A stretch of 64,000 nt of DNA. Source: a virus. Its lineage: Duplodnaviria; Caudoviricetes. Shown one piece after another: positions 41,286-60,698 of the stretch. The DNA is taken from the IMG/VR virus record IMGVR_UViG_2974670102_000001, positions 128,001 through 192,000 of that record; one strand, given 5' to 3'. The position numbers and the translations under genes were made by a program. The number at the start of each line of letters is the position of its first letter. Positions within the stretch are counted from its first letter, which is position 1. The notes under the pieces were generated by a model, which was given only the letters and a program-made list of their open reading frames with translations, made no database searches and was not told the origin of the DNA.

Positions 41286-43175
41286 CTAGATTACCGGAAT
41301 AGGGTTGCTGACGCGCTGTGCCAACGACGTGTAGCTGATTTCCATGTTTGCTACCTCTATGGAAAGTGGCACAGAGTCTGTTGCACGCGCGATGCCGTAA
41401 GATAGAGTTGCGGCACCCGATCCCATGGCCCCCGAGTAGTTCACCACGGGCTTGGAGTCGCGCCACACCTGAAGAGTGCCCTGCGAGCCCAGCACTACGT
41501 GCATCACGTAGTTCACCCAAACGCCTCGTTGTAGAAGCGCATCGGAGTACTGAATGATGGGTATGACATCGGTGGACGCTTGGGTGCGTATCGAAAGCGT
41601 ATCCTGCGCCACGTCCACGGTCAGCGTCTTGGTCGAGGCATCGCGGTCCAGCCCGAATACAGAGCACTGGGACGCTGTGCCTATGATTCCCGGATCGATC
41701 CTGAGCGCGAAGCTGAACCAAATGTCGGTGCCCGTGTTGAGCGTGGCCGTATCGACAAGATCAGCGCGATCAACTGTTGTAAGGTCCGAAACATCACGGT
41801 CACCCGGATTCACCAAGAACTGCTGGGCCGACTGCCTGTTACGGGCCTCCGTGTAGCCACCCAGTACACCGCGCACCGCCATTTGCCGCCCCGATACTGT
41901 ACGCACAGTGGTGGGACCGAACGTCAGCGTGTAGTTGATTGGCCATACGGCTTCCGCGAATCGCGTTGCGTACGCGCTATCGACGTTCGGTGCGAGTGCA
42001 ACCACCGATTCGATGGCCAGCGATCCATACTGGGGCACCGGAATCGTATAGCCGTCTGGTGTGGCAACCACTTGTCGAGACCACACACCACCGTCACGCC
42101 CCTGAATCGCGAGCGTATAGCCGCCATTAGGAATGAACAGTTTGGTCGTGGATGCGACGCGCGTTGTCGCCACAAACGCTGTGTTGTCCGAAGCATTTGC
42201 CCCGTCCTCGATCTGCGGCTTCGAAATTTCGACGGTTATGGAGAACGGGTCCGTGTCGTTGGTTGTGGCAATCACAAGGGCTGCGGACATCTGATCGCCT
42301 GCGATAGCCGAGTTCCAGATGCTGACGCGGCGACGCCCGTATGCGGGAAGCACCGTGTACGATGCGGCTCGCGCATTGCCCGTTTTGAGCACAACGCCGG
42401 TAGCCACGCCCCCAACGTTCAGCACGTTCACGGTCGCTGCGGTTGTGAGGCCGCCACGAGTCAGCGTGGGTGCCGTGCCCGAGCCGCTGTTGAAGCTGAG
42501 CGGAACGCCTGCTGGACTTGCTTCAGTACGCGTGAACCTGATCTGGAGTTTCGGGCCGACCTGCAACACCTCCCACAGAAGTGTAGGATCGCTAACTGTC
42601 CAGCCAGTTGGTAGTGAGCCACCGTTTGCGGACGTGCCGACCAAGGCCCCTGCGAAAGTGGGGTTGGTGATCAGGTTGCTTGTACCGCGCTGAACCATCA
42701 ACCGGCCATCCTCGTCGCGATCATCAACCGTCTGGTTGAATGTCTCGAACGGGTACGCCAGATCACGATAGCGCCAGAAGCGCCCGGCCATAAAGTCTGC
42801 TTTGTACAGCGAGGTGCGCGCCGTATTCAGGTGCGCGGTGCTAACAAACATCGGATCGATGAAGAGGTTGCCCTTCGTATCGATCTTCAGTTCTTGTCGT
42901 GGGACCACGGTTCCGAGTGTGCTATCCGTAGCCACATCGGAACCACGCAATTCCCAGACTGGGGCTTTGTACAGTACGCCATCGCGATACAGGGGAACGG
43001 TGTCGTCGGCTTGTAGCGGGATCGAGGCTTGCGCCATGGAGCCCGTGTAGAGCGTGTCTAGCGCAGAACCTACCGTACCCGATTCGTGTCCGATCAGCGT
43101 AGAGCCGTTCGGCGCGCGCAGCCACGCGGCAATGCGCTGCCGGAAACTCTCGTACAGTGCTGGTATGGAGTACAT
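41286..43175 (-). CDS. tailspike/fibre-like protein with C-terminal ConA/polysaccharide-lyase-like domain
   Basis: LRAPNGSTLIG..GTV..AL tailspike neck motif, PQIEDG...TTR, WFSFALRI...RGVWVNYVMHV...GTLQVWRD. Confidence 0.6.
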   Translation of the reverse strand: MYSIPALYESFRQRIAAWLRAPNGSTLIGHESGTVGSALDTLYTGSMAQASIPLQADDTVPLYRDGVLYKAPVWELRGSDVATDSTLGTVVPRQELKIDTKGNLFIDPMFVSTAHLNTARTSLYKADFMAGRFWRYRDLAYPFETFNQTVDDRDEDGRLMVQRGTSNLITNPTFAGALVGTSANGGSLPTGWTVSDPTLLWEVLQVGPKLQIRFTRTEASPAGVPLSFNSGSGTAPTLTRGGLTTAATVNVLNVGGVATGVVLKTGNARAASYTVLPAYGRRRVSIWNSAIAGDQMSAALVIATTNDTDPFSITVEISKPQIEDGANASDNTAFVATTRVASTTKLFIPNGGYTLAIQGRDGGVWSRQVVATPDGYTIPVPQYGSLAIESVVALAPNVDSAYATRFAEAVWPINYTLTFGPTTVRTVSGRQMAVRGVLGGYTEARNRQSAQQFLVNPGDRDVSDLTTVDRADLVDTATLNTGTDIWFSFALRIDPGIIGTASQCSVFGLDRDASTKTLTVDVAQDTLSIRTQASTDVIPIIQYSDALLQRGVWVNYVMHVVLGSQGTLQVWRDSKPVVNYSGAMGSGAATLSYGIARATDSVPLSIEVANMEISYTSLAQRVSNPIPVI

Positions 43176-43184
43176 AGGAATCCT

Positions 43185-43403
43185 TTAAGTGCAAATACAA
43201 ATTACAGGTACTTTGGGGGCAACCACGGCTTCCGTGATGACTTCTACCCACTGCTTACGCATACGTGTGGACGCTGGGTAAGTAGTGAGTGAGTCGGTCA
43301 CAACCTCCACATAACTCTTACGGACTCCAGTGGAAGCCGCAAGTGTAGAATTCGTAACCACCTCACCGTACACCTTACTTACTTGTGTGGTAGGCGTAGC
43401 CAT
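43185..43403 (-). CDS. small triple-repeat protein
   Basis: VSKVYGEVVT / VRKSYVEVVT / MRKQWVEVIT. Confidence 0.7.
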   Translation of the reverse strand: MATPTTQVSKVYGEVVTNSTLAASTGVRKSYVEVVTDSLTTYPASTRMRKQWVEVITEAVVAPKVPVICICT

Positions 43404-43405
43404 GA

Positions 43406-44443
43406 TTAGTCACCCATACCGACCTGTGCCGCGTTGACGCTGGTAACAGTCCATGCGCTACCTGCGCTGTCCCGCGTGAACACATCGGAGTACACAACGT
43501 TCGTGCCCACCAGCGAGCGCACTGCACCCGGGACTACGGTTCCGTTCGACTTTATCTGGGCCGTAACCGAGTGCTGAGCGTCTGCCCCGGGGTTCGAGGC
43601 ACAGGTGTTGACGACAACGGCGTTTACGTTTTGGGCTGCATATGGAAGCGCGCTCATCGTGTACAGATCAGACTTACCTGTCGTCGCGTCTGTCAGCGTC
43701 GCGGTCCCGGTCCACGGCTGCGATGCCACCTGCCAGTTGGCCCCGGCGCTGGGCGCGAATTGAGTGCTATCACCAGCACCAGCAGGATTCATTAGGCCGA
43801 TACGACGCGCGCCCACCGGAAACGTGTTGAAATCGGTGCCTGTGGTGTCCCAGATCAGGAAGTCGTCCAGATACGACAGGTTGTTGCTGGGTGTGTAATC
43901 GGTGCCGATAAACAGCGTCGGTATCACCTGTGCGGGATGATTGCTCAGGTTGTACGTACCACTGAATTGCTGAACACCATCCACGTAGGCCGTCACCTGA
44001 GAGTTGGCCCCATTCAGCGTGAACGAGACTTCGATCCAGTGATAGCCGTCACCCAAATACGTGGTGCCAGTTGCTACAGGCGTCGTCGTGTTGTTGTGCA
44101 GCGTCAAATAGCTGCCGTTGTACGACAGTAGCGTAGCGTTGGGGAGGCTGACCAAACAGTACTTGGGTAGATTGCTACCGCCACCGCCGTTCAGACGCAG
44201 CCGCCACCAACCAGCCACGTAGAACGTAGCGCCCGAGGCCACGCCTGCGCCCGGAAGATCACAGCGTAGCGAGGCCGCGTATCCCGCTGTGTTGTTGCAG
44301 AAGGCACGGCCGCCGAAGCGGCCGTTCGTGGGGTCGAGCCCGGCATTGCCCGCAGGCAGCGCAATCTGCTTGTACTTGCCGCTGTTTGCAACGTCGGTGA
44401 TTGTCGCGTACGAATCCCAGCCTTCAGAAAATAGGAGTGCCAT
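43406..44443 (-). CDS. LamG/ConA-like virion protein, paralogue 1
   Basis: EGWD N-terminus, YHWIEV, YVDG, YLDD, then P.GAG..QF.P...NW...D.Y C-terminal domain. Confidence 0.65.
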   Translation of the reverse strand: MALLFSEGWDSYATITDVANSGKYKQIALPAGNAGLDPTNGRFGGRAFCNNTAGYAASLRCDLPGAGVASGATFYVAGWWRLRLNGGGGSNLPKYCLVSLPNATLLSYNGSYLTLHNNTTTPVATGTTYLGDGYHWIEVSFTLNGANSQVTAYVDGVQQFSGTYNLSNHPAQVIPTLFIGTDYTPSNNLSYLDDFLIWDTTGTDFNTFPVGARRIGLMNPAGAGDSTQFAPSAGANWQVASQPWTGTATLTDATTGKSDLYTMSALPYAAQNVNAVVVNTCASNPGADAQHSVTAQIKSNGTVVPGAVRSLVGTNVVYSDVFTRDSAGSAWTVTSVNAAQVGMGD

Positions 44444-44452
44444 ATTCTTTCC

Positions 44453-46459
44453 TTATCGCGTGCCGTTGAGCGTGATCGATACGCCGCTAAAAGTCGTGTC
44501 CGTGACGCCCGCAGCGAATGTCATCACGTCGCCTGCTGCAAACGTGACCGGGTTCGATATGTTCACGGTGCCAGTCGACGAGCCCGCAGGATACGTGATG
44601 TCACCCACCATTACACCGTTCTTGTAGATGCCTATGATCACGATGCCCGTCGTAGCCACCAGCGAACTCGACAAGTTTCCGGTGATGCCGGAGAGTCCCG
44701 CAGCGAACGCCACGCTACGCGCGAAGATCGTTCGGTAGAACGTAGCCCCAGCCACCGGAGTTCCCGGATAGAACGTCATGATGTCGTACGGCTGCGGCGG
44801 TATGGTTGCGGTGGGCGGCGCTGTCCATGTACCGTCTTCCCGCAGATACCTCGTGGTGCCAGCCGTCGAACCCGGGCTCGGAACAAGACCGTTTTTGGCG
44901 TTGACACCGGACGGACCGAACGTCGGAACGTTCATCTGGATCGACACGTTGTCGTTGCCGTCGGCCCCTACTATGATGTTGCTGTCGTATGCCACGATCT
45001 TGCGGAAACGCGTCTTGCCCGAGCCGTCGTTTGCAGCCGACATAACCGACGTGCCTGACGGTGCCGTGTTGTCGTAGGGCACTAGGTTCACGTTGCCGTT
45101 GCCGTCTGGCGACGCCCCGTTGACGGTCTTGACAGTTCCCGATGCCGTGATGTTGACCGTACCGTCTGCGGCCATCGACATGCCAGTCCCTAGCTTGATG
45201 CCACCGAGGACCGTACTCGATGCTTGTGGCAGCGTGTACGGGGCCGGTATAATAGGCAGTCCTAGCAAGTCTGAGTAGTTGCCAGTCTTAGCCACGGTGG
45301 CCAGATTCTGAACGTCGCTGGCTCGAATGGTCAACACATAGTTGCCTGTGTTGTCTGGGCCCGTCCCATTGATGCTAAGCACACCCAAGTTTGTGATCGT
45401 ACTGTTCGTATAGTCGATCCCACGGCCTGCCGTGATGCCTTGACCCAAGTTCGAGCGTATATCGTCGAGCACCGCCTGAAGGTTCTTGCCGTAAGTAGTG
45501 CCAACGAGTGCTGCGCCACCCGCACTGCCCAGATCGGATTCGGCTACAACGTCCGCTATCCGTAGTGCGTTGATCTCGACCGTGACGAGCGGCGCTCCTG
45601 CCACCACCATGGCCGCGACTTCTGGGGCAAGCACGATTTGAATGCCGCCCGTGCCGTCATAGGCCAGTCGTTCGAGATATGCACCCATCAAATAAACGTC
45701 AACGACGTTCGGGGTAAAGCCACCGGGTATCACGAACGTGCCCTGACCATCGGCGGTCGCGTACACGATCTTAATGGTACGTCGGTTCAGGTCGCCACTC
45801 ACTATCAGGTTATCGTTAGGATCACGATCGATTGTGATGTTGGCACCTGCTACCAGTGTTCGGAACTTCATGCGCGCGTCATGTGCGCCGGAGTCCGAGA
45901 TCAACGAGTTGCCGGTTCCGGGGTGTGCATCGACAGCCTCGATGGTGAGACTGCCGTCCCCCATGGGGTACATGTCGTTGATACGAAGGACGCCCGTGTT
46001 ATTGACCCTGATGGTGCTGCCCGTGTTGTCGATGCCGATGCCGGGGCCGCCCTCGATCACCACCTCGCCTGTCTTGTTGTTGACACTGGTGACAATACCC
46101 TTGATGGGCATTGGATCAGTAGTCGAGTGAACGACGAATGTGATCTGCACCACTGCGGTGTCAGTGTCCGAGCGGTTGGTGATGAAGAACTGATCTACCG
46201 GATCGTCAATGGACAGTTGCTGATCGACCGCTACTGCTGTTGGGGTTCCGGTTCCTACCACAGTCGACACAAACACAGGCTTGTCTGTGCTGATCGTGAG
46301 CGCCGAGAACCCAACATCCGCATCCCATTGCTGTCCCGGCTTCAGAACAATCGTTTGGTTGATGGTCTGATTGGCGTAGTACTTTGCCACCAGATTCTCG
46401 TTGATGACTGGAACACCGGAGCCGCGAGTGCCTGTCTTGATTACGAAGCTGTCGCCCAT
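44453..46459 (-). CDS. fibre protein
   Basis: VTSVNNKTG, VAKTGNYSDL, YTLPQASSTVLGG, GLVP.P....YLREDGTW repeats; AAGD C-terminal domain. Confidence 0.75.
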   Translation of the reverse strand: MGDSFVIKTGTRGSGVPVINENLVAKYYANQTINQTIVLKPGQQWDADVGFSALTISTDKPVFVSTVVGTGTPTAVAVDQQLSIDDPVDQFFITNRSDTDTAVVQITFVVHSTTDPMPIKGIVTSVNNKTGEVVIEGGPGIGIDNTGSTIRVNNTGVLRINDMYPMGDGSLTIEAVDAHPGTGNSLISDSGAHDARMKFRTLVAGANITIDRDPNDNLIVSGDLNRRTIKIVYATADGQGTFVIPGGFTPNVVDVYLMGAYLERLAYDGTGGIQIVLAPEVAAMVVAGAPLVTVEINALRIADVVAESDLGSAGGAALVGTTYGKNLQAVLDDIRSNLGQGITAGRGIDYTNSTITNLGVLSINGTGPDNTGNYVLTIRASDVQNLATVAKTGNYSDLLGLPIIPAPYTLPQASSTVLGGIKLGTGMSMAADGTVNITASGTVKTVNGASPDGNGNVNLVPYDNTAPSGTSVMSAANDGSGKTRFRKIVAYDSNIIVGADGNDNVSIQMNVPTFGPSGVNAKNGLVPSPGSTAGTTRYLREDGTWTAPPTATIPPQPYDIMTFYPGTPVAGATFYRTIFARSVAFAAGLSGITGNLSSSLVATTGIVIIGIYKNGVMVGDITYPAGSSTGTVNISNPVTFAAGDVMTFAAGVTDTTFSGVSITLNGTR

Positions 46460-46487
46460 AATTATCTCCGTTATGATGCTCTGCTAA

Positions 46488-46496
46488 CTAAAATTA
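46488..46496 (-). promoter_or_regulatory. class B motif TAATTTTAG
   Basis: About 30 nt upstream of the fibre ATG at 46459. Confidence 0.55.
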
Positions 46497-46502
46497 CACA
46501 CC

Positions 46503-46533
46503 AAAAGAAAAACCCGGCTCGGGGCCGGGTTCT
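46503..46533 (-). terminator. intrinsic terminator
   Basis: Minus strand: AACCCGGC-cccga-GCCGGGTT then TTTCTTTT. Confidence 0.75.
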
Positions 46534-46573
46534 TCTGCGTGCCGCCTATTAATGTACCCATTGCATAGATACA

Positions 46574-46582
46574 CTAAAATTG
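46574..46582 (-). promoter_or_regulatory. class B motif CAATTTTAG
   Basis: Intergenic copy. Confidence 0.55.
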
Positions 46583-46617
46583 GCTGTTCGGTTATTGCCA
46601 ATACAGGGCCCTATTCG

Positions 46618-47112
46618 CTACGCGGTTGGCAATTCTGCGTTTACGGTCATGCCAAAACTACAGGTTCCGAAGCCTCCTAGTAGTTGGTTACCGGCAGGCA
46701 AGTTCAGGCGCACTGCGTTGTTCGTCTGTGAGGCCACGGTCGGATTGCCTGAGCTAAGGTTGGATACAGACACACCGCTGAACGCAAGCGTCGGGTTGCT
46801 GATACGCTTGTACTCGTACTGCGCCGTCATCTGCGGAACCTGTCCGTTGCCTACCTGTCCGGACCACGCGAAAGGTGTTCCAGAGAACGCTTCGTAGTAG
46901 AACAGACAGTCGTTGAGCATGGACGCTAGGTCGCGAAACTCGTAGCCCGTAAATTGCGGCCCGAACTCAAGCTGAACTTCAGACAGCAGCGCCGTGAACG
47001 TGCCGGGAGACGCAGCAGTAGCAATCTGCAATCTCAGGTAGTGGTTGGTCCCCAGAGTTTTGCCCACAACCGAGGGCAGCGCAAACGTCTGCTGACACCG
47101 CGTCCACGTGTA
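46618..47112 (-). pseudogene. headless C-terminal fragment of a tail fibre
   Basis: TWTR.QQTFALPSVVGKTLGTN...VQLEFG...YEFR.L...L.DC..YYE fibre motif begins right after an in-frame TAG (47113-47115); no start with RBS. Confidence 0.55.
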
Positions 47113-47134
47113 CTACTGGGGCCCCCGCCCCGAT

Positions 47135-47620
47135 TTACTGCGCTGTTGCCACAAGCCGTGCAGCGGCCCCCAGTCCACTGTCAAGCGCCGGTTGATCCTG
47201 CGGAATCTCGGTGCTGTTCGTGAACAGGGACCAGTTTGCATCGGCCGCTGTCTCGGTCTTGTTTGCGTCTTTGTTCTGTTCTTCAGGCGTCTTGCCGTCA
47301 CGCACACCATACGCGTCGTCGAGCGCTTTCTTGGCGTCGTAGAGGCGGGACTTGTCTGCGCCCTGAAGGTTTCGTCCCTTGCGATTGATGAACCCGTTCA
47401 ACTTCGAACTGGCCTCACCACGATCTTCTGAGTGCTGCTTGAGTTGGCGCGCGATCTCGCTGGGGCTCTCGGTGAACGTGCCCTTCGGCAATTCTGAGCC
47501 TGCGCGTCGGCCCTTGCCTCGGTACTGCTGGTCCATGCGCTGCTGCCACGTCTTGTCCTGATCCTGCTTAGGCGGGTCCGTGATTTGGCGCTCAGCCAGC
47601 AGCCTATAGGCTGCTTTCAT
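47135..47620 (-). CDS. DUF3175-like protein, paralogue of 23820-24089
   Basis: LPKGTF..SPSEIA..L...ASSKLNGFINRKGRNL...LYDAKKAL; GGAGAAGG RBS before ATG 47620. Confidence 0.65.
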   Translation of the reverse strand: MKAAYRLLAERQITDPPKQDQDKTWQQRMDQQYRGKGRRAGSELPKGTFTESPSEIARQLKQHSEDRGEASSKLNGFINRKGRNLQGADKSRLYDAKKALDDAYGVRDGKTPEEQNKDANKTETAADANWSLFTNSTEIPQDQPALDSGLGAAARLVATAQ

Positions 47621-47643
47621 AACCTTCTCCATGTTCTCTGGCT

Positions 47644-47677
47644 GCAATAAAATTGGGACGCCTCAGCGTCCCAATTT
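47644..47677 (-). terminator. terminator hairpin whose 3' arm and U tail contain the class B motif CAATTTTAT (47647-47655)
   Basis: Minus strand: AATTGGGACGC-tgag-GCGTCCCAATT then TTATT. Confidence 0.6.
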
Positions 47678-47678
47678 G

Positions 47679-47966
47679 TTAAGTCGCCGATGTATCGCTT
47701 GGCGGTACAGGCAATAGCTGTAGTATGTAGGCCGTGTACGGCCGCACAATTGTCGTGTTGCCTATGTGCTCGGTCTCGTAGTACGTACGCTCATCGTAGT
47801 GCAGTTCACGACTAGTACCAAGTGCCGCTGGATCGAGTATCAGGACCCCATAGTTGAACTCGATTAGGTAGTCGTCCGGAACACTTGCGAGTACGTCAGG
47901 CCACTCTGTTTCGTCCCACGTCGCTACGTAGAACGTTTTGCTTATATCATCCTTGTAGGTGTCCAT
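47679..47966 (-). CDS. hypothetical protein
   Basis: 95-aa ORF; AAGGA RBS. Confidence 0.65.
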   Translation of the reverse strand: MDTYKDDISKTFYVATWDETEWPDVLASVPDDYLIEFNYGVLILDPAALGTSRELHYDERTYYETEHIGNTTIVRPYTAYILQLLPVPPSDTSAT

Positions 47967-47975
47967 ATGTTCCTT

Positions 47976-48341
47976 TTAACTCGGTGTGAACCAAGTAATA
48001 GTGGTCATTGGTTTAGCTGGGTCCAAGGTTGTCTGCGCTATGACCTCCAGCGTAACACCACTGTCTTGTGTGGTATACGGAAGGCCCGCTATGACTTCCA
48101 TGGATACACCATAATCGTTTGCCGGAATTAGGCCGGACGCCAACACCTCCATTTGAACCGCATAGTCATTCGCATTGAGCGGGGGTATGATCAGGACTTG
48201 TCGTGCTACAGCCTGACTCTTAACCGCCGATGACTGCGACAGTAGAACCTGCCGCGCTACTGCCCTAGCAGTAGACGCGGGAGATTGAACCGTGAGTAGC
48301 TGTCTGGCTAGGGCTTGGGCCTTTACTGGGTTACCTGCCAT
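47976..48341 (-). CDS. small protein with two different triple repeats
   Basis: 3x A(L/V)ARQ(L/V)L, then 3x D(Y/S)xVx(M/L)EV(L/I)A. Confidence 0.7.
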   Translation of the reverse strand: MAGNPVKAQALARQLLTVQSPASTARAVARQVLLSQSSAVKSQAVARQVLIIPPLNANDYAVQMEVLASGLIPANDYGVSMEVIAGLPYTTQDSGVTLEVIAQTTLDPAKPMTTITWFTPS

Positions 48342-48355
48342 GGGCTACTCCGTGA

Positions 48356-50608
48356 TTACGTTATGTGGTTCAAAGCAAACTGCGAGGCTTTGATCGAGTT
48401 GGTGGTCCACGCCTTGTTGCCGTTCGGATCGATATCAGACAGAACCGACACGTATGCAGGAGTCGTACCTGACACCGTGACTTGCGAACTGTCCGTTTCA
48501 GCACCGCTACTCCGCAACCCGACGCTAACAACCGGGGCCGTGGTCGAGGTTTTGGTGAAATACGTCTCCACCAACTGTGCCCGAGCCGTATAGCCTGCCG
48601 GAATCGTGTCTGCCGAAGAGTACACGTCAACGTCTCCGGAGTTCGAGGACGCTACGTTCTTCGAACTCAGGCTCGATAGTGCAGCCTGATTCACTGCGCT
48701 GGCGTTAGTGCCCGAGCCACCGGTCGGGACCCATTGGGCCTGAACATCGGCATCGGGACGCTGAACCGCGATGTTGATTTGACCGAGGTTACCGCTAAGG
48801 CCGGTGCCGTCTTCGAGCGTCACGTAGATATCGTCGATTGCGGTAAAGCACCCCGAACGTTGGAAGCCGATCAGGAACAGGCCCGTCGTGTCGATGTTGC
48901 GTGTGAACTGATAGGTGAACTTCGAGCCGATCTGCACACCGTCAATGTACATGTACACATCGAACTGGTTGACTGACGCGCTGTTCTTGACATACCGCAT
49001 TTCGAAGTAGTGATACAGGTTCGACGTTGCAGACAGCGATCCTGTCAGATACGTTGTGCTGTTTCCTACCGAATCCAGAATACCCCACTGACGATTGCCA
49101 CCAGAGGCCCCCGCCACGAATAGGTGCAAGAATCCACCGTACGTGTTGAAGACCGTAAACTGGCCGTTCGCGGCGGGCGCTCCGGATGCAGATACCACCA
49201 GACCGCTGCCAACACCACCTGTCAATCCAGTTGCTGTGGCGTCGAGCGCCTCGTATACGTTCAGCGCCTGCCAATTGGTCACCATGTCTGGGGTGGTGGC
49301 GATAATACCGGTAACGGAGCTTGAGAACAGTACGTATTTGCTACCGTCATACAGATAATTTGTATAGCCGCCGGTCGCGACGTTCGTGAGTGGAGTGCCC
49401 ACCAGAGTCCATGTAACACCATCTAGTGTGCTGTATACCGACCCACCGTTTGTCACCGCATAGAGCGTGCTGCCGACCAGTATAAGCTGGGTCGGCAGTA
49501 CTGGCAAACTCAGACCCAGCGTCATCGTCACTGTTCCGGACAGCGGACTAGGCGTTCCGGGAGTGCCGCCCGGATTGGTCGCGTACATAAGGCCCATGTT
49601 CGTGGCAAACACATAGCGATTCGCAGCGGGCAAGAACGCCATATCCGTAATGTAGTTACCACTTGGACCCGGTGCCGTCCAACCCGTGGCGGTCACCGTG
49701 AAGCTGGTCCACGCGCCCGATGTGTTCAGCGCTGAGTTTGCGGCAACTGCCATCAGCCCGTAACCGGAGTAGAAAAGAGCAACAACACCACTGCTACCGC
49801 CCAACAAACGACTTACGGTAGAAACCGCGTTAATGGCTTGAGTTGCACCGCCCCCGCTCGACGCTAGGGTAAAGTTGCCAGCGCCCTTCTTGGCGTCCCC
49901 CACCATTGCATACATGATGCCCTGAAATCCTGAACTGGTATTGGATATCACTGGAACAACATGAGGAAACGCCGAGTTGCCGGTGTCCACTGGACACATT
50001 GGGCTGGAAACCGACGCACTCGGAGTGACTGGTAGTGCTACGTTAGTCCAAGACGAACCGTTATTCGTTGAGTAGTTTATAGCCGTCGTATTAGTGCTTG
50101 TGTTGGAGACAACCAGCGGCACGCTAGACGTTTGGGAGTACGTCATAGCTAGGGCACCCGATATCTGTGCTGGCGTGTCCGTCCAGTTGATCAGGTCTGG
50201 CGACGTGCTGATGTTCGTGCCTGTTGCCCGACGGAACCCCCAGTAACGGGTTCCGTCAAAACCGCACCCTTGGCCCAGTGCTGCGCTAACGTAATACCCA
50301 GCGTTGCTGTTGAGTTTGGCACCAAAACCGAGTGTGATACCGCCCGCGTTCCAAGCCTGTTGAACTGTGTAGCCCGTATTGTAGTATCCCCACGTCTGGT
50401 CAGCAGCAGCGCCCCACAGAGCCGACGATGCCGCAGACGACTGAAACGCACCCACGGGACGCAGTGACGTTCCCGGGACGTTAGTAACGCTAGGCGCAAA
50501 CGTCACCTTCTTGGTTGTGGGAGCCTGTGGGGAAACGCTCCAGTTTTGCAGCCGCAGGTCGCTGTCGTCGCGGGTCGTTTCAAAACCCTGCATGTATTTG
50601 AGACTCAT
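48356..50608 (-). CDS. LamG/ConA-like virion protein, paralogue 3, with large inserted beta-rich domain
   Basis: QGFE N-terminus, YHYFEM, YIDG, IDD, QWVP..N...D.Y; inserted SPDLINWT, STNNGSSWT and TLDGVTWT Asp-box/BNR-like motifs. Confidence 0.65.
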   Translation of the reverse strand: MSLKYMQGFETTRDDSDLRLQNWSVSPQAPTTKKVTFAPSVTNVPGTSLRPVGAFQSSAASSALWGAAADQTWGYYNTGYTVQQAWNAGGITLGFGAKLNSNAGYYVSAALGQGCGFDGTRYWGFRRATGTNISTSPDLINWTDTPAQISGALAMTYSQTSSVPLVVSNTSTNTTAINYSTNNGSSWTNVALPVTPSASVSSPMCPVDTGNSAFPHVVPVISNTSSGFQGIMYAMVGDAKKGAGNFTLASSGGGATQAINAVSTVSRLLGGSSGVVALFYSGYGLMAVAANSALNTSGAWTSFTVTATGWTAPGPSGNYITDMAFLPAANRYVFATNMGLMYATNPGGTPGTPSPLSGTVTMTLGLSLPVLPTQLILVGSTLYAVTNGGSVYSTLDGVTWTLVGTPLTNVATGGYTNYLYDGSKYVLFSSSVTGIIATTPDMVTNWQALNVYEALDATATGLTGGVGSGLVVSASGAPAANGQFTVFNTYGGFLHLFVAGASGGNRQWGILDSVGNSTTYLTGSLSATSNLYHYFEMRYVKNSASVNQFDVYMYIDGVQIGSKFTYQFTRNIDTTGLFLIGFQRSGCFTAIDDIYVTLEDGTGLSGNLGQINIAVQRPDADVQAQWVPTGGSGTNASAVNQAALSSLSSKNVASSNSGDVDVYSSADTIPAGYTARAQLVETYFTKTSTTAPVVSVGLRSSGAETDSSQVTVSGTTPAYVSVLSDIDPNGNKAWTTNSIKASQFALNHIT

Positions 50609-50617
50609 ACGTATTCC

Positions 50618-51760
50618 TTAACGAGAAGTCTGGCCGAACTCTCCGGCATTCAGACTGGCTGTTGTCCAAGGGTTCGTGCCGTCTGTTTCTGCCACCGATA
50701 GATAGCGCGACGGGCCGTTCGATGTTGTCATTTGCGTCACACCGGACGAGCTTGATGTTTTGAAAGACCCCTGAATGTTCTGATACCGATTCGAGTTGCC
50801 ACGCATCACGACCGCACGCACATCGGATACCGCAGGCACATTCCATTTGTACGTATCGGTCTGGCCGGTGGCGCTTGCGGTCACGTAGTTGGCACCGGTC
50901 GTATCGGTGGCCGATTGCCAGTTGGGTTCGGCACCAGATGGAGTCCACTGGGTGACCGATCCGTTGCCCGTTGCCGAGACTGCGTAAATACGGCGTGCCG
51001 TGATAGCGGGTTCCGTTTCCGGGGTCGGCCACACACCAGCACCGAGAGGCCACGCGGCGTCCGCACCCGAAACGTTCTGAACCACGAGGTCATCAACGAA
51101 GTAGCTGATGAAGTTCGAGGCGAAGAACTTGAGGCGGTTCGCGATCTGCCCGGCCGTGAAGTTGTCTGCACTCCACGTCACCGGAATATCCTGCTGCAAC
51201 GTCGTGCCGTTGATCGTGTACGTGGCAGTCAGGACAGCCGACGATGCAGTCGATGTCGTGCTGTAGTACGAGAACTGAAGCTGTACCCAGTAGTACGTGT
51301 TCAACTGGATGTTGAAGTTGTACGGAGAACTGGTCGGGCTGTTGATGTTGGTGACGAACTGTAGGTTGGTGCCGCCCGACGACGAATTGCTGATGTTCAG
51401 GAGCGGATACCACGAGCCCGGAACGCCTGCGGTTCCGAGTGCGAGCAACGTGCCAGACCCCGGGTTCATCGTGTTGATGTTCAACCAGAAGTTGAAGGCG
51501 AACGCGGCCTTACCGCTGGTGGCAGTGTTCCCGCGAATCATCTGCATGGTCGACGGGAACTGGTACTCGAAGCCCGAGGTCAGGGACGCTGGGGCCCCCG
51601 ACGACGGGAACGTGAGAGCGGCACCGCCAAATGCGCCAGCCGACAAGTTCACCTGTCCGGCTATGGAACTGTTGGTCACGAACCATGGGTAGTTTGCGGC
51701 AAGCGTGCCTGAAGGGTAGATGTCAAACCCCTCGGCCGCTGCAATAAATTGTGCTGCCAT
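50618..51760 (-). CDS. LamG/ConA-like virion protein, paralogue 2
   Basis: EGFD N-terminus, GAFGG, YYWVQL, FVDD, G.G..TQWTPSG..NW...TG..D.Y. Confidence 0.65.
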   Translation of the reverse strand: MAAQFIAAAEGFDIYPSGTLAANYPWFVTNSSIAGQVNLSAGAFGGAALTFPSSGAPASLTSGFEYQFPSTMQMIRGNTATSGKAAFAFNFWLNINTMNPGSGTLLALGTAGVPGSWYPLLNISNSSSGGTNLQFVTNINSPTSSPYNFNIQLNTYYWVQLQFSYYSTTSTASSAVLTATYTINGTTLQQDIPVTWSADNFTAGQIANRLKFFASNFISYFVDDLVVQNVSGADAAWPLGAGVWPTPETEPAITARRIYAVSATGNGSVTQWTPSGAEPNWQSATDTTGANYVTASATGQTDTYKWNVPAVSDVRAVVMRGNSNRYQNIQGSFKTSSSSGVTQMTTSNGPSRYLSVAETDGTNPWTTASLNAGEFGQTSR

Positions 51761-51770
51761 TTGTTACTCC

Positions 51771-53066
51771 TTATTGCCACGTGCCACGTATGGTGATGGT
51801 GATGAGCGAAACGTTCGTCGTCGCAAACTGATAGGACAACTGATCGCCTGCTGCGTAATTGGTTGTGCTACCCGTGCTCGTAAACGAGTTGCCGTTCACC
51901 GTGTCGATGTTGAGCGTGCCGACCTGCGTACCAGTATTCGGGGTGGCCGCCGGATACTTCATGATGCGTATGGTAGCGGTAGTGCCGCTGATCAGCCGCA
52001 CGTTTGCCACCGAGTTCGCCCAGTTCTGCGGGAACTGGCACGGGTCCGTGAACATGTAGAACACTTCGTTCACGATGTTCGGATTGCCCTGAACGTTGAC
52101 TGGCAGACGCGCGATGCTCGGGTTGGGCGGTTGGTTCAGCAGGTCCGTGTAGGAGCCAGTGAGCGCAACCGTCGACAGCGTACCCGACGCGAGGTTACCT
52201 GCGGTCGCTGCGGTGTTCGTGAACTGCACGCCACCCAGCGTTGTGGTAGTTGCCTTGGGCAGCGAATACGGCGTAGGCTTGTTCGACAGGTCGTTGTAGT
52301 TGCCGGACGTGGCGACGGTCGCAAAGCCCGCGATGTCGGTAGCCGTCAGCGTGACCGTGCCAGTCTTACCGTTCACGGACGTGACGTTGGAGCCAGAGTT
52401 AGCGATCTTCGTCCACACGTTGTTCGACACCAGCGCCAAGTCACCGACAGCCCACGTGCTGATACCGTCGATTGATGTGGAGCCCGCAACCGATACCACG
52501 TAGTACGAACCGTTTGCCTGCGCAGTGCCACCAGCAACACCACCGTTTGCGAGAACCGGGTTGTTCGCGTTAGCGTCCCAGTTCCCCTTGTACGACAGGC
52601 CCCCCGTGATAGACGACGGCAGATATTTTGATGCGACAGTGCCCGACGGTCCTGACAGCAGGTCGGTTGGTAGACCAACGTCTGCGGCCGTAAGCGTCAC
52701 GGTGCCCGAGCGCGAGTTGACGCTTACGACACCAGCGTTGGTGATATTGCCGTTCGAATCCACAGCCAGACCGCCGCTGGCCGGAACCATCACGCCACCG
52801 AGCACCGCTGCCGATGCTTTCGGGAGTACGTAGTTGCCAGCCGATGGTTTGTTGGTCAGGTCGTTGTAGTTGCCGGTGAACGCCACCGTGGACAGGTCAC
52901 CCGGACCCAGACCGATCTCCTGAATAGCACCCGTGTTGTCGAGTGTGTACAGTTTTCGGTCTGGGAAGTTGATGGCCAACTGGCCGGTGAGTATCTGCGC
53001 CGTGGTGGGGCGAGCACCAGCGGTCAGCAGCCGTGGGTGCTGAACCGGGATGTTAAGAGCAGTCAT
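51771..53066 (-). CDS. distal fibre subunit with T4 gp37-like N-terminus
   Basis: R..TAGARP....TGQLAINFPDRKLYT.D..G.I..IG resembles the gp37 N-terminus; VATSGNYNDL and ATTTTLGG repeats; AAGD C-domain. Confidence 0.7.
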   Translation of the reverse strand: MTALNIPVQHPRLLTAGARPTTAQILTGQLAINFPDRKLYTLDNTGAIQEIGLGPGDLSTVAFTGNYNDLTNKPSAGNYVLPKASAAVLGGVMVPASGGLAVDSNGNITNAGVVSVNSRSGTVTLTAADVGLPTDLLSGPSGTVASKYLPSSITGGLSYKGNWDANANNPVLANGGVAGGTAQANGSYYVVSVAGSTSIDGISTWAVGDLALVSNNVWTKIANSGSNVTSVNGKTGTVTLTATDIAGFATVATSGNYNDLSNKPTPYSLPKATTTTLGGVQFTNTAATAGNLASGTLSTVALTGSYTDLLNQPPNPSIARLPVNVQGNPNIVNEVFYMFTDPCQFPQNWANSVANVRLISGTTATIRIMKYPAATPNTGTQVGTLNIDTVNGNSFTSTGSTTNYAAGDQLSYQFATTNVSLITITIRGTWQ

Positions 53067-53079
53067 TGTGTATTCCTAA

Positions 53080-55404
53080 TTAGCCGATGACGCCGCCATC
53101 GATAGTCAAGTTCTGCAAGAACGAAAGCGGAACTGCCGCGTCGCCCGTTGTTGGTGTGGTCAGCCCATTCAGGACTTGGCTACCCATGCTCAGCGGGCCC
53201 GTCATGGTCACGTTGCCCGAGACGGGCACCGCGTTCACGTTTGCAGCCGTGAGCGACACGTTACCGCTGCCGTTCGGGCTGACGCCGTTGACTGTCGACA
53301 CGGTGCCTGCGGGAATCGCGGCGGTGATCGTGACCAAGCCGTTTGCTTCGGCCAACGTAACGTTTTGACCAGCAACCAGCGACTTGATGATCGCAGAGTT
53401 TGCGGGCGGGTTGGATTCGACGAGCAGTACAGCGCCTGTGCCTGTTTGGCCCGTGACCGACGTTATCGCGTTAGCGATGGACGGAACAACAGACCAGCCC
53501 AAGTTCTGGCGCATGTAGCCGTTGCCATCGTTCGGGGCCTCCGGAACGCCGGTCCCCGAAATCTGGATGGAGTTGCCGGTGTTCGACAGCGAAATCGAGG
53601 GGCCTGCCGTGAACGTGATAGCGCCAGTCAGCGCGCCGGACGTTCCTGCCGTGATGGACGAAACTCCACCCGTGGCAGTCGACGCGATGGAAAGGTTCCC
53701 GTTCGCGTCCGGCGTGATCGTCACGCCCGATCCAGCAACCAGCGTCTTCAGCTTAATGTTACCGGTCGTCGACCCGTTGTTGCTGATGAGCGACGTGCCT
53801 GTTGCAGCGTTGTTGTCCGTGGCCTGCACAACTACCACACCGGTTTGTCCGGACACCGAAGCAACAGCACCAGTTGCCGAGATCGTGCCGTCCGCCGCGA
53901 TGCTGATGCCCGGACCGGCTTTGACGCCGCCTAGGTTCACGCCGGTCGGTGCCGCAAGCGACAGGTTACCTGTTCCGTCCACAGTCAGACCGGCCTTGAC
54001 AATCACACCACCGATGGTGGTGGTCGTAGCAGGGTTCAGCACTTGGTTCGCAGCAATCGTCAGCGTCTTGTTGTCGCCAGATGGCGTGATCGTGACGTTG
54101 GAGCCTGCGGCCAGCGACTTAATCGTCGCGATACCACCCGCAGTCCCGTTGTTGTCCACCAGACCAGTGCCAGTGCCTTCGTTGTTCACTGCCGTCAGCG
54201 CGCCCGAGGTTGCTGTCGAACTGATGGTGATGTTGCCGTTAGCGTCCGTGCCAAGCTGAATCAAGTTACCAGCAACCAGCGTCTTCAGCTTAGCGTTGCC
54301 AGTTGTTGCACCTGCGTTCGCGATCAGCGACGTGCCAGTTGCAGGATTGTTGTCTGTAGTACTGATAACAACTATGCCAGTCTGGCCCGAAACCGATTGC
54401 ACGTTACCCTGCGCATTGATTTGCAGGTTGCCGTTAGGGTCAGCAGCCAGTGTCACGTTGGAGCCAGCGACCAGCGTTTTCAGCTTGATGTTGCCGGTCG
54501 TCGCGCCACTATCCGTAATCAGCGACGTACCGGTTGCCCCGTTGTTGTTCGTAGCCTGAATGATAACGGCACCAGTTTGTGCGGACACCGAAGAAACCGG
54601 AGCCGGGACTGGTGCCGGGACTGAGATCGTGCCGTCAGCCGTCACGTTGATGTTGGCACCGATCTTGACTGCGCCAAGAACTGTGCTCGATGCCACGGCC
54701 GATACAATCTTGCCATCGGCACTCAACTGGATGCCCTGACCTTGCGGTACATACACACCGCCTAGGTGGGCCGCGTCCTGTCCCGCTGCCGGAAGAACGT
54801 ACTGGTTTGCGCCCGTCAGGACGAGGTTGCCCGATCCGTCTGGTGCGATGGTGATGCCCGAGCCCGCGACAAGCATCGCTAGACTCAAATTACCGGTTGT
54901 GGACCCATCGTTCTTGATGAGCGACACGCCGTTAGGAGCATTGTTGTCGACAAGCTTCACTACGACGTTGCCCTGCGAGTCCGGCGTCTGGTTGTTGACC
55001 GACCGAACGTCACCGGCAGTGTAGTTGGCCGTCGTCGTAGCCCCGTACACGGACCCATCGTTTGCGATGAACGTGGGGCCGCCCGGGTACTCGACACCGT
55101 TACGCCACACCTTCGAGCGTGTCGGCAGGCCCGAGTTGGGGTCCGTTACTTCGTAGAACAGATCGATTGCAGCACCGTCGATGATGCCTTGGCAGATCGC
55201 GGTGTACGGAAGGGCAAAGCGCCACCGGCTCTGGCCGATGTCGTAGATGTACGCGCCCTTGTCACGACCCGGGCCCTCTGTGGACGCCAAGATGACTGCT
55301 TCGGCCGTAGGGTCGATCGGCAGCGTGTCCACAGTAGGTGCCACCACCGTGTTCGCCACCCCGTTTCGGTGTAGCGTCAGGGAGTAGTAAAAAGTGCTGT
55401 CCAT
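53080..55404 (-). CDS. repetitive fibre subunit (gp36-like C-terminus)
   Basis: Repeated VSGQTG..DNN..TGTSLI...TTGN.KLKTLVAG units; ends TMTGPL...TIDGGVIG. Confidence 0.7.
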   Translation of the reverse strand: MDSTFYYSLTLHRNGVANTVVAPTVDTLPIDPTAEAVILASTEGPGRDKGAYIYDIGQSRWRFALPYTAICQGIIDGAAIDLFYEVTDPNSGLPTRSKVWRNGVEYPGGPTFIANDGSVYGATTTANYTAGDVRSVNNQTPDSQGNVVVKLVDNNAPNGVSLIKNDGSTTGNLSLAMLVAGSGITIAPDGSGNLVLTGANQYVLPAAGQDAAHLGGVYVPQGQGIQLSADGKIVSAVASSTVLGAVKIGANINVTADGTISVPAPVPAPVSSVSAQTGAVIIQATNNNGATGTSLITDSGATTGNIKLKTLVAGSNVTLAADPNGNLQINAQGNVQSVSGQTGIVVISTTDNNPATGTSLIANAGATTGNAKLKTLVAGNLIQLGTDANGNITISSTATSGALTAVNNEGTGTGLVDNNGTAGGIATIKSLAAGSNVTITPSGDNKTLTIAANQVLNPATTTTIGGVIVKAGLTVDGTGNLSLAAPTGVNLGGVKAGPGISIAADGTISATGAVASVSGQTGVVVVQATDNNAATGTSLISNNGSTTGNIKLKTLVAGSGVTITPDANGNLSIASTATGGVSSITAGTSGALTGAITFTAGPSISLSNTGNSIQISGTGVPEAPNDGNGYMRQNLGWSVVPSIANAITSVTGQTGTGAVLLVESNPPANSAIIKSLVAGQNVTLAEANGLVTITAAIPAGTVSTVNGVSPNGSGNVSLTAANVNAVPVSGNVTMTGPLSMGSQVLNGLTTPTTGDAAVPLSFLQNLTIDGGVIG

Positions 55405-55409
55405 AGTTC

Positions 55410-56081
55410 TCACCACGTGAATGCGGCGTTAGCCGAGTTGAGGCTTGGCATGCGTTGTTGAACAAGCTGTGTCAACGCTTCGCCCTGAGCCCCGTTTATT
55501 TTTTGTGTAACCGCCGTGTATGCGTCCTGATCTGCGAGCGCGCTCAGTCCGTTCTGGCTCCAGTACCAACCGGCACTCATGAACAGATCGGCGGCCTGTG
55601 TCACAAGGTCGGGATTGCTGACGACGCGCGTATCCCCGTAGATGGCTTGGCTGTATGCTGTGTAGTTCGAGCGCCCCGTCAGGTGGAATGCACCTCGCCC
55701 GCGAAACAGCCAGCCATCACCAGAAGCCACGTTGCCGTTGCCCATGCGCGAGGCATAGACCAGATTCGCGAGCTTCTGCGGGTTGCCAACATAGCTCGGC
55801 GCATACGCCTTGCTGGTATCGGCTTGGTTCATGGTGAACCGCGAAGGCCACACGGCGACCAGCCGTTCCGGCGTCGTGTAGTTCAAGTTCTCCACGAGCT
55901 TCGAGAAGCCAGCCGTCTCGTACGCGGCTTGCGCCATGAAATAACGCACACGGCGCGGACTCGCGTCGATACCGAATTTTGCCATCGCCGCGTTTGCTGC
56001 GTCTGCCATCACCTGAAGCTGTGTGGCCGGAATTTGTGGCGCAAATTTTGCGAGTTGCGCGCTCGTGATTGCGTATGCCAT
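55410..56081 (-). CDS. endolysin, glycoside hydrolase family 19
   Basis: FMAQAAYET..F..LVENLNY, ANLVYASRMGN, DGWLFRGRG..HLTGRSNY, SAGWYW, TQKING. Confidence 0.9.
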   Translation of the reverse strand: MAYAITSAQLAKFAPQIPATQLQVMADAANAAMAKFGIDASPRRVRYFMAQAAYETAGFSKLVENLNYTTPERLVAVWPSRFTMNQADTSKAYAPSYVGNPQKLANLVYASRMGNGNVASGDGWLFRGRGAFHLTGRSNYTAYSQAIYGDTRVVSNPDLVTQAADLFMSAGWYWSQNGLSALADQDAYTAVTQKINGAQGEALTQLVQQRMPSLNSANAAFTW

Positions 56082-58262: not shown

Positions 58263-60698
58263 TTACGCGGAGCCCTTCAGGGTGAAGGCCGCGCTTGCGA
58301 GTGCTGTGTCGGCTGCGAGCGGGCCGACAACCAGCAGCGTGTCGCCTGCTGCCAGATTAAGGGCTGACGCCATCGTAAAGGTGGGCCGATTTGCGCCTAC
58401 CGCCCAGTTGATGGTGCCTACCGTCGTTGCCGTCGTGCTACCAGCCGGGATGCGCTGGATGTTGAACGTGGTAGCCGCAGCCGCGCCCGTCTGCGCATAA
58501 CCAGAACTGCCGGTCAAGCCAGCCGGAAGTGTGACTGCACGCGTGATCGGCATTTGCAGCACGATCTGCGAAGCCGTCATGGTGCCGCTCACACCGCCTG
58601 CAATGTCGTACGCCTGTGCAGGAGAGGTGCCGCTAACCTTGATCCAGTTCGTGTTGAACGCCAGCACCATATCCCCGACAGCCCAGCTACTCGTACCGTC
58701 TAGGCTGGTAGTACCGGCCACCGTTACTCGGTAGGCCGAACCGTTGCCCGGAACAGTCTGGTACACTTGCTGGCCTGCGGCCTGACGGAATGCCGTATCG
58801 ATGGTTTGCTGACCGCCCGTCAACAGCGCCGTGTTCGGGTCGATGGTGCCAAGACCCTGATACTGGGACACGTGGTTAGCGCTGGCATCCCAGTCACCGA
58901 TCACGTACACGGCCCCGAGAGGCAGTTGTGCGCGAGGCACGCGACCATACACGTAGCCATCTGTGGGGCCCGCGCTGCCCGTGTTCTGGTCAAGCGTGGC
59001 CACGCCTCCGGGCTGACCCTTCTGCGTAGTGGGTATAGCACCAACGTCGGAGGCGCTGAGCACTATGTTGGCATTGCTGTAACCGTTGACTGTTTGAATC
59101 TGGGTCTTCAGCAGGCCCGTTGAGTCGACGGTTAGACCCGCGCCCACGATCACGGCACCCAGTGTCGTGGTCGTCGCAATCGGAATCGAGCCGTTAGGAA
59201 CCGTGTTCCATGCACCCCACGTGTTGTTGACGCACGCGCGGTAGGCCATGCGCGTGCCCGATTTCCACGTTTGCACCACATCACCGCCAGTTCCCGTTGT
59301 CGTGAACGGCGCGACTTCTAGGATAGCAGCATCGGTTGCTGCGTTCGGCTTATTGAAGAGTGAGCTAACATCGGCAGAAAGCACAAAAAACAGGCCGGTC
59401 TGCTTATAAGCATTCATGTCAGCAGCGGCCGGTATTCTTGTTGGATGAACAAGACCAACTGTGGTATCCTGCACGACCACGTTTCCGTTTGCGTCGGGAC
59501 CCACACCATTCACAGTCATCACGGGGCTGATGCCTAGGTCGATGGTGCCGTCCCCAGCAATCGTGATGTGGCCGTTGGTCGGGGCCTTCACACCACCAAG
59601 CGTTGTGGTAGTGGCCACCGGCAGCGTGTACGGCACCGGCTTGTTTATCAGGTCGTTGTAGTCACCCGTGGCCGCTACCCGCGCCGCATCCGGAATGTCC
59701 CCGATCTTCAGGTTCACGTCCCCGGTCTTTCCGTTGACGCTGGTAACCGGGAAGATGCTCGAATTCACGTCCAGCACGCCTTGCGGAGTGATGGTCAGCG
59801 TGTTGCCCACGATCACGGCACCAAGATCAGTGTGCGTTGCAATCGGCAGGTTCGGAATCGTGGTGCTAAGTGCCTGTCGGCCGAACACCACGATTTTGTC
59901 ACCGACCGCAGGCAACTGCGCCAGCGGAGACGAAAACTGGAGCGTGGCGTCGGTCGAGGTCGTGATGACGCCCGTGACGTAGCGACAGAAGCTGAAGTTC
60001 TGGCCCGTCGCAAATTCAGCAATGATCTCGCCTGTGTACGCGGGGCTCATGCCCGGCACGTAGTCAGCAAGCGCGATCTTCACGGATTGCGTACCGACAC
60101 CTGTGATCGTGGCCAGCGCCTGATATGCGTAGTCGTACGCATCAAAGTTCCAGAGGCCGGAGCGGTCGGTGTAGGCTATGAACGCGGACTGTTTCTGGTC
60201 GACGCCCGTGATGATGTAAGCGTTCGGCGTTGCGTTGCTCGATTGCGGCAACTGATCCGGAGACCCGAGAACCGCCATCCGAAACTGGTTGTTCGATTCA
60301 GCCGTGTCGAGCCACATTTCGTAGTTCGTATCCACGACCGACAGGAATTCGTCGATGCGAATGGCGTTGCCGAGGCCCGGGCTCGATACCGATTCCTTTG
60401 TGATCAGTTTGTTCGAGACCGCGAGCGAGAAAAGTGTGTTGCCCACGTACATACCGATCTCACCGAACGCAAACGGGCCGAGTGAGTAATCGAGGTACGC
60501 GCTGTACTTCACGACGTTCGGATTTACTACGAACGGTGCTGTCGGCACGCCCTCGTAAATAGTATTGCCGTGGATATCAACGTCGCTTGGGCTTGGCGTG
60601 TAGTTGTACTGGTCGCCAATTTTGAACGACGTGATGGTGATCGGGCCGGTGGCCGCCCTGATCAGGGCTTCCCCGGCCGTTGTGAGTTGTACGAACAT
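58263..60698 (-). CDS. second baseplate-anchored tail fibre
   Basis: N-terminus paralogous to 37558 (FKIGDQYNYTPSPSDV..GNTIY.G.PT, GPFAFGEIG); fibre repeats; AAGD C-domain. Confidence 0.75.
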   Translation of the reverse strand: MFVQLTTAGEALIRAATGPITITSFKIGDQYNYTPSPSDVDIHGNTIYEGVPTAPFVVNPNVVKYSAYLDYSLGPFAFGEIGMYVGNTLFSLAVSNKLITKESVSSPGLGNAIRIDEFLSVVDTNYEMWLDTAESNNQFRMAVLGSPDQLPQSSNATPNAYIITGVDQKQSAFIAYTDRSGLWNFDAYDYAYQALATITGVGTQSVKIALADYVPGMSPAYTGEIIAEFATGQNFSFCRYVTGVITTSTDATLQFSSPLAQLPAVGDKIVVFGRQALSTTIPNLPIATHTDLGAVIVGNTLTITPQGVLDVNSSIFPVTSVNGKTGDVNLKIGDIPDAARVAATGDYNDLINKPVPYTLPVATTTTLGGVKAPTNGHITIAGDGTIDLGISPVMTVNGVGPDANGNVVVQDTTVGLVHPTRIPAAADMNAYKQTGLFFVLSADVSSLFNKPNAATDAAILEVAPFTTTGTGGDVVQTWKSGTRMAYRACVNNTWGAWNTVPNGSIPIATTTTLGAVIVGAGLTVDSTGLLKTQIQTVNGYSNANIVLSASDVGAIPTTQKGQPGGVATLDQNTGSAGPTDGYVYGRVPRAQLPLGAVYVIGDWDASANHVSQYQGLGTIDPNTALLTGGQQTIDTAFRQAAGQQVYQTVPGNGSAYRVTVAGTTSLDGTSSWAVGDMVLAFNTNWIKVSGTSPAQAYDIAGGVSGTMTASQIVLQMPITRAVTLPAGLTGSSGYAQTGAAAATTFNIQRIPAGSTTATTVGTINWAVGANRPTFTMASALNLAAGDTLLVVGPLAADTALASAAFTLKGSA

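Follow-up and report, generated by a model that had tools for sequence, protein, structure and literature searches.

Here we describe a tail-fibre module in a 64,000-nucleotide (nt) stretch of phage DNA, hereafter the window, which corresponds to bases 128001-192000 of the 262,653 bp IMG/VR phage record IMGVR_UViG_2974670102_000001 and whose proteins have relatives in Burkholderia phage BCSR5, the Ralstonia phages phiRSL1 and RsoM2USA, and Achromobacter phage Motura. On balance we favour a reading in which two small repeat proteins of this module are strings, the adjoining LamG-like proteins are beads carried on them, and the ends of the preceding fibre proteins are docks, the whole forming a bead-on-string accessory at the distal end of the fibre. 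The genes lie in one long fibre module on the minus strand, running from ~56 kb down to 40.9 kb, in which a GH19-type endolysin is followed by fibre proteins of 778 and 431 amino acids (aa), LamG-like proteins of 380 and 750 aa, a 121-aa repeat protein, proteins of 95 aa, ~170 aa (DUF3175-like) and 149 aa, a 668-aa fibre protein, a 345-aa LamG-like protein, a 72-aa repeat protein, and finally proteins of 629 and 129 aa. The 668-aa fibre, the 345-aa and the 72-aa genes are referred to below as cassette 1, and the 431-aa fibre, the 380-aa, 750-aa and 121-aa genes as cassette 2.

The two candidate strings are built of repeat units of ~18 residues followed by a hydrophobic tail. The 72-aa protein (43185..43403, minus strand, as are all features below unless stated) has three Glu-anchored units, termed C type, at residues 8-17, 27-36 and 48-57, and a tail ending in VICICT. 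The 121-aa protein (47976..48341) has three Gln-centred units (A type; residues 9-16, 26-33 and 43-50), then three Glu-centred units (B type; residues 59-68, 76-85 and 93-102), each of the B units with its own position-specific conservation, and a tail ending in TWFTPS. Self-similarity of this degree was matched by 0 of 1000 shuffles, and when a hidden Markov model (HMM) of the unit was applied to the 2378 open reading frames (ORFs) of the genome, those with at least two units numbered two, namely the two string genes. Homologues of the 121-aa string occur in BCSR5 and at loci L005-L008 and L044-L047, the BCSR5 orthologue of the 72-aa string has five units, and the hydrophobic C-terminal tails of both strings are kept in relatives. 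Each string gene follows a LamG-like gene at close range, with gaps of 2 nt (72-aa string) and 14 nt (121-aa string). Neither small protein belongs to a Pfam or PHROG family, PDB sequence searches with both string profiles gave chance matches only, and scans of viral contigs with either protein as a single query gave no match. For the 121-aa string a word-index protein search retrieved five relatives, and for the 72-aa string it retrieved none; a protein Atlas search was uninformative (scores of at most 0.88). The closest database relatives of the 121-aa string (P0009, P0010 and P0012; 67-82% identity) are filed as partial Enterococcus faecalis or Staphylococcus aureus proteins on contigs of ~0.6-1.3 kb, and these entries are probably assembly contamination by a related phage.

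The candidate beads are three LamG-like proteins of 345 aa (43406..44443; phrog_2448, E 1.4e-18), 380 aa (50618..51760; LamG-family HMM, E 1e-26) and 750 aa (48356..50608; phrog_30887, E 1e-109). They are distant paralogues, with pairwise E-values of 2e-9 (380-aa versus 345-aa protein), 1e-4 and 0.01. A profile of the family of the 345-aa protein, designated LamG345, matches both ends of 750-aa-type proteins in close relatives, as if ~350 residues had been inserted inside a LamG-like protein; the 750-aa protein of the window is itself missed by this profile and joins the family through phrog_2448, which covers its residues 521-744. The large insertion shows a faint Sortilin/BNR match. For the 345-aa protein, Pfam Laminin_G_3 matches at E 3.9e-5 with 24.3 bits, below the curated cut-off of 27.6, a PDB profile search with LamG345 gave matches at E 2e-6 to LamG-type chains only, and in an AlphaFold2 model (predicted local distance difference test, pLDDT, 89) residues 1-213 form a concanavalin/LamG-type jelly roll that compares with concanavalin-type jelly rolls at a VIA Z of 15.4 and a root-mean-square deviation of 3.1 over 190 residues. 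Taken together, the Pfam match, the PDB profile and the model predict a LamG-type jelly-roll fold for this protein. Its C-terminal beta-sandwich of ~130 residues (205-345), modelled alone, reached a pLDDT of 95.5 and gave generic matches of the carbohydrate-binding-module type only (Foldseek E>=0.05, VIA Z<=7.5). The LamG345 family comprises at least 1754 cluster representatives at E<=1e-3, annotated as hypothetical nearly everywhere.

The candidate docks are domains of ~120 residues at the ends of the fibre proteins encoded immediately before the LamG-like genes, namely residues 311-431 of fibre 2 (431 aa; 51771..53066), encoded at about 51771-52136, and residues 536-668 of fibre 1 (668 aa; 44453..46459), encoded at about 44453-44854. 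The similarity of the two ends is weak by BLAST (E 0.003), and iterated profile search places them in one family; fibre 2, whose end is represented in alignment A7, matches the C-terminus of phrog_9625 (E 1.2e-40), and residues 548-662 of fibre 1 match phrog_29809 and phrog_7049. The proximal fibre protein (778 aa; 53080..55416) matches phrog_9625 at E 3.9e-35 and, by BLASTP, phiRSL1 ORF182 and BCSR5, and the 778-aa and 431-aa proteins jointly correspond to the single 1586-aa fibre ORF182 of phiRSL1. A third fibre protein (811 aa; 58263..60698), which has a weak Phage_tail_fib N-terminal domain, ends in the same dock-type domain (dock HMM, E 1.7e-24, residues 689-810) with no bead or string genes after it, and might share the beads of the other two cassettes. 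Beyond these relatives, the dock profile A7 matches, at E 0.0016, the jelly roll in which gp124, the tailspike of Milano, ends (PDB 8FQC, residues 478-581), in an alignment that spans 114 of 121 profile positions.

An earlier sequence-only reading of this DNA had already described the same minus-strand gene order twice, one triplet of repeats in the 72-aa protein and two in the 121-aa protein, hydrophobic tails on both, paralogous LamG-like genes and a common C-terminal fibre domain, and the ORF check, shuffles and profile searches reported above agree with it on every one of these points. Its account of the layout was correct for the cassettes and left out the genes between them (the 95-aa, DUF3175-like and 149-aa ORFs) and the third fibre.

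The same arrangement is found in phiRSL1 (ORF183-185), BCSR5 (QRE00314-320), RsoM2USA, phiCbK (gp315-316) and many phage or prophage contigs of ~40 kb. Using a profile of close LamG345 members (alignment A4; alignment A3 proved too diverse), we gathered 33 distant viral loci, in ~20 of which a gene whose start encodes tandem units of ~17-20 residues each adjoins the LamG stop codon within a few bases. Bead and string genes overlap or are separated by 1-14 nt in most cases. At the core of the unit in these distant loci, a hydrophobic residue is followed by Glu (or Gln or Asp) and a pair of aliphatic residues, and when the unit HMM was run on the 1807 ORFs of the loci, 17 had at least two units, 16 of them beside a LamG gene. 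The gene directly upstream of LamG ends in a dock domain in most of these loci, and what is conserved is therefore a set of three genes, which encode a dock domain, one or more LamG-like proteins and a unit-bearing protein. Stand-alone strings are often of 63-85 aa and consist of three units ahead of a short hydrophobic tail. In phiCbK the order differs, since the small gene stands ahead of the LamG gene, with the 69-aa three-unit gp316 between tail protein gp317 and LamG-like gp315. Elsewhere the units form the N-terminal extension of a larger protein, be it a distal-tail-protein (Dit) homologue (L028/L030), a GTA-g12-like protein (L033) or fibre-like proteins of 366-496 aa (L021, L026, L029). 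Two variants of the theme were also seen. At L031:6579-6947 a 122-aa protein after a LamG-family gene carries three Gly-rich, Asp-anchored units, which may point to additional string motifs used with this bead family, and at L011:7053-8546, L034 and L037 unit-like motifs lie near the C-terminus rather than the N-terminus of the post-LamG protein (unit HMM matches at residues 432 and 469 in L011).

These fused forms bear on the possibility that the small proteins are assembly chaperones for the upstream LamG-like protein or fibre, acting in the manner of Tfa, gp38 or gp57A and absent from the virion, which we consider unlikely. Chaperones could well be encoded, as these proteins are, straight after receptor-binding genes and in translational coupling with them, and it would fit that we found no proteomic record of the small proteins and that phiCbK gp316 is not flagged as virion-associated. 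However, the same units occur covalently within large structural proteins of other phages, the small proteins show no similarity to Tfa, gp38 or chaperone families in Pfam or PHROGs, and variable tandem copy number is not known for fibre chaperones. The fusion of units to structural tail proteins (L028, L033 and the fibre-like proteins) is in keeping with a virion attachment peptide rather than a chaperone. The proposal that each small protein is a structural partner of the LamG-like genes thus gains support in outline from translational coupling, from adjacency in ~20 of the 33 loci and from the fusions.

The numbers of units and bead genes offer a second line of evidence. Units were counted by eye from printed sequences, with string length as an objective proxy, an automatic counter being unreliable in that shuffled sequences scored nearly as many units. 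A single bead gene is accompanied by three units in cassette 1 of the window, RsoM2USA, phiCbK, L009, L010, L012-L015, L021, L025, L029, L038 and L040, by four in L022, L026 and L033, by five in L017/L018, by two in L028/L030, by one in L023 and by 3+3 in L008b. Two bead genes are accompanied by 3+3 units in cassette 2 of the window, BCSR5 cassette 2, L005, L006 and L044a, by 2+3 in L007 and L008a, by five in BCSR5 cassette 1, by four in phiRSL1, by three in L016, by 4+3 in L019 and by 5+3 in L044b and L047. Stand-alone strings have a median length of 73 aa and a mean of 3.3 units with one bead gene, as against 120 aa and 6.0 units with two (Mann-Whitney p ~1e-4, with relatedness among the genomes not corrected). 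As a trend, string length thus rises with the number of bead genes, with some three units to each gene. Orthologous contrasts agree, in that one gene and three units in the window face two genes and five units in BCSR5, and L044a and L044b differ likewise.

The sequence-only reading had gone further and expected the number of triplets to equal the number of neighbouring paralogues, and here the survey upholds the trend and not the rule. After two bead genes there are five units in BCSR5, four in phiRSL1 and three in L016, further exceptions being 4+3 in L019, 5+3 in L044b and L047 and five units after one gene in L017; an additional bead gene brings 0, 1, 2 or 4 more units, and exactly three never. 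Locus L008 has three bead genes and four unit sets, with every 750-type gene having its own A+B string, which refutes a strict count rule and does not bear against a link of unit to paralogue. In L044b, where two 750-type genes precede the string, the A-type units number five and are of two subtypes in alternation. The window, BCSR5, L005-L008 and L044 have both the B units and the 380-aa paralogue, and neither is present anywhere in the genomes of phiRSL1 and RsoM2USA, a co-occurrence that amounts to about one evolutionary event.

The strict rule had been tied to a specific geometry, in which the small protein is a monomeric, pseudo-threefold spine that plugs into the trimeric fibre tip, and each triplet binds three copies of one lectin-like subunit, so that rings would be stacked along the tip. 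Three is indeed the modal number of units per bead gene across very distant lineages (the window, phiCbK, L009-L015, L025, L029 and L040), the average is likewise ~3, and each of the three B units is conserved in its own position-specific manner. We nevertheless hold stacked rings to be quite improbable, as homologous strings also have 1, 2, 4, 5, 7 or 8 units, a second bead gene adds 0, 1, 2 or 4 units and never exactly 3, and units fused to a Dit-like protein, which forms six-membered rings, do not suit a plug for a trimer. Moreover, where such systems have been solved they are dimers in linear chains: in Milano a gp125/gp127 dimer garland surrounds the receptor-binding proteins, with three dimers per tailspike gp124, and in A511 three gp105 dimers are beaded on an extended chain of the wedge protein gp104 (PMC10811340), so that the three of these phages are dimers placed one after another. 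We favour a linear chain over threefold rings as the better account of the variable counts, the fused forms and these precedents. The prevalence of three is real, and it matches the three dimers per string in A511 and Milano. It is very unlikely that the repeat proteins instead trimerise as a short beta mini-fibre of their own and adjoin LamG genes only through a shared operon, for while ~18-aa beta-type repeats recall fibre shaft repeats and precede long fibre-like proteins in several loci, the LamG adjacency is far too specific, string length tracks bead-gene number, and a 72-aa protein of three units would make a very short fibre if it stood by itself.

In the bead-on-string reading that we favour, the small protein would take the form of an extended string. 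Its units, each of ~10 residues centred on Glu or Gln, would form beta-strands, and each strand would be clamped through beta-sheet augmentation by a LamG-like bead, which is probably dimeric, like the beads of the solved cases. By its hydrophobic C-terminal tail the string would be fastened to the ~120-aa jelly-roll dock at the fibre end. Unit types probably select bead paralogues, and the 345-aa protein would be recruited by C units, the 750-aa type by A units and the 380-aa type by B units. The fibre tip would then present lectin-like domains in a short, programmed row that binds host-surface glycans. We infer physical contacts among the three components, their stoichiometry, their presence in the virion and their sugar binding. 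For subunits that dock on a repeat peptide through beta-strand addition, as the sequence-only reading had also proposed, there is direct precedent, both in A511 and Milano and in A1002, where the nozzle-rope protein gp39 has 11 docking sites, dimers 1-7 being gp40 and dimers 8-11 gp41, and each dimer makes an augmented beta-sheet with the rope (PMC13730344). In fibre I of GP4, similarly, five gp80 dimers are carried on a separately encoded rope (PDB 8JOU; PMC13730344).

Several observations weigh against this reading. We found no proteomic evidence for the small proteins, and the phiCbK record flags gp317, and not gp315 or gp316, as virion-associated. The LamG345 profile shows no detectable relation to GP4 gp80 (hhalign probability 0.2%), the family shows no sequence relation to Milano gp125 (hhalign probability <1%), and gp80-type (8JOU) and gp8-type folds are not among the structure-search matches listed. 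The string units are unlike the candidate GP4 rope gene (compared by eye) or any PDB chain, the match of the dock to the Milano tailspike is weak (E 0.0016), and the scaling statistic pools related genomes and depends on units counted by eye.

We can also imagine, tentatively and with a good deal of doubt, a more general role, in which dock, LamG bead and mini-string form a portable module for programmable adhesin display, the type and order of the units encoding the position of each paralogue at ~three positions each, and in which jumbo myophages, phiCbK-type siphophages and ~40-kb temperate phages re-target their tips by duplicating a bead gene together with a few units. Should the LamG-like proteins prove to be beads and their small partners strings, a structural role would fall to a large group of genes beside phage receptor-binding genes that now lack an explanation; the small partner genes of the LamG345 family are often overlooked. 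The correspondence of unit type to paralogue would then be a rule, open to testing, for the assembly of mixed lectin arrays by phages, and the reading as a whole is directly testable in cultured relatives.

The remaining genes of the module include a conserved 95-aa protein (47679..47966), which matched no Pfam family, has BLASTP matches to genes in L005, L006, L008 and L045, and comes after the string gene in relatives. At a comparable place in the fibre module of RsoM2USA is RsoM2USA_426 (L004:16413-16700), likewise of 95 aa and by eye of a PAAR-type spike-tip appearance; the two proteins are unrelated. A lysine-rich DUF3175-like protein (47135-47647) has a weak paralogue on the plus strand of the window (23820-24089) and homologues at the same place in BCSR5 (two copies), phiRSL1 (ORF186) and L008. 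The 149-aa ORF (46618-47067) matches tail-fibre PHROG 4492 at its C-terminal end only and is 55% identical to a stretch of a 371-aa protein from metagenome locus L047, and may be the truncated remnant of a fibre tip. The 629-aa protein (41286-43175) starts 9 nt past the gene for the 72-aa string, and in its C-terminal part it weakly matches a polysaccharide lyase (concanavalin-like; E 1.7e-5, under the cut-off). On the plus strand, the structural operon is closed by a gene (39903-40469) for a 188-aa protein that matches the Acb1 nuclease family, directed against the cyclic-oligonucleotide-based antiphage signalling system (anti-CBASS; PF23474, E 1.4e-15, over the curated cut-off).

Contrary to the sequence-only reading, which knew of no description of such a system, bead-on-string fibres have been published, and the comparison with them defines what is particular to this module. 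The chain-like podophage fibres of GP4, VP1 and A1002 resemble it in pairing a polypeptide of tandem docking units with one or more adjoining bead genes; A1002 moreover has two bead paralogues on separate stretches of rope, as would be the case for the A and B units here, and the rope may stand alone (GP4) or be part of a larger tail protein (A1002), both of which forms occur in the family of the window. They differ in that the known beads are of 140-171 aa, in contrast to the two-domain LamG-like proteins of 345-750 aa described here, that the strings here are very short (3-8 units), and that the genes here follow the long-tail-fibre gene of a jumbo myophage rather than a podophage nozzle or neck gene.

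The garlands of Milano and A511 (BW3TFN connectors; T4 gp8) are closer in setting, being found in myophages, with beads at receptor-binding proteins and three bead positions per string. In Milano the bead genes come directly after the spike gene, and the end of the tailspike is the one that matches the dock profile, if weakly (E 0.0016). In contrast to the candidate beads of the window, those of Milano are of 141 aa with a gp8-like rather than a LamG fold, and the A511 string forms part of a wedge protein of the baseplate. For the Milano garland the string is known only as a proposal, gp126 (PMC10811340); gp126 differs from the strings described here in its proline-rich N-terminus and absence of Glu-anchored units. 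In its C-terminal part gp126 (L049:496-990) weakly resembles the dock domain, with a pairwise E of 0.005 and a probability of 7% by hhalign. If the bead-on-string reading is true, there would be a concrete type of candidate to seek for the Milano string.

The T-even pair gp37/gp38 is a further parallel, in that a separate adhesin encoded just after the fibre sits on the distal end of the long tail fibre, but gp38 binds the tip directly without a repeat string, forms no multi-copy array and has neither sequence nor family similarity to the proteins described here. T-even gp38, Tfa-type chaperones and PAAR proteins were all rejected as candidates for want of a Pfam or PHROG family match, the PAAR repeat domain in particular not being found in either small protein with these two resources; in RsoM2USA the PAAR-like protein is a separate one. 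To judge from sequence comparison, then, the likeness to known bead-on-string fibres would be one of design, with at most the dock domain in common. That design was already known; what is new here is a different bead protein and a widespread, unannotated module of three genes.

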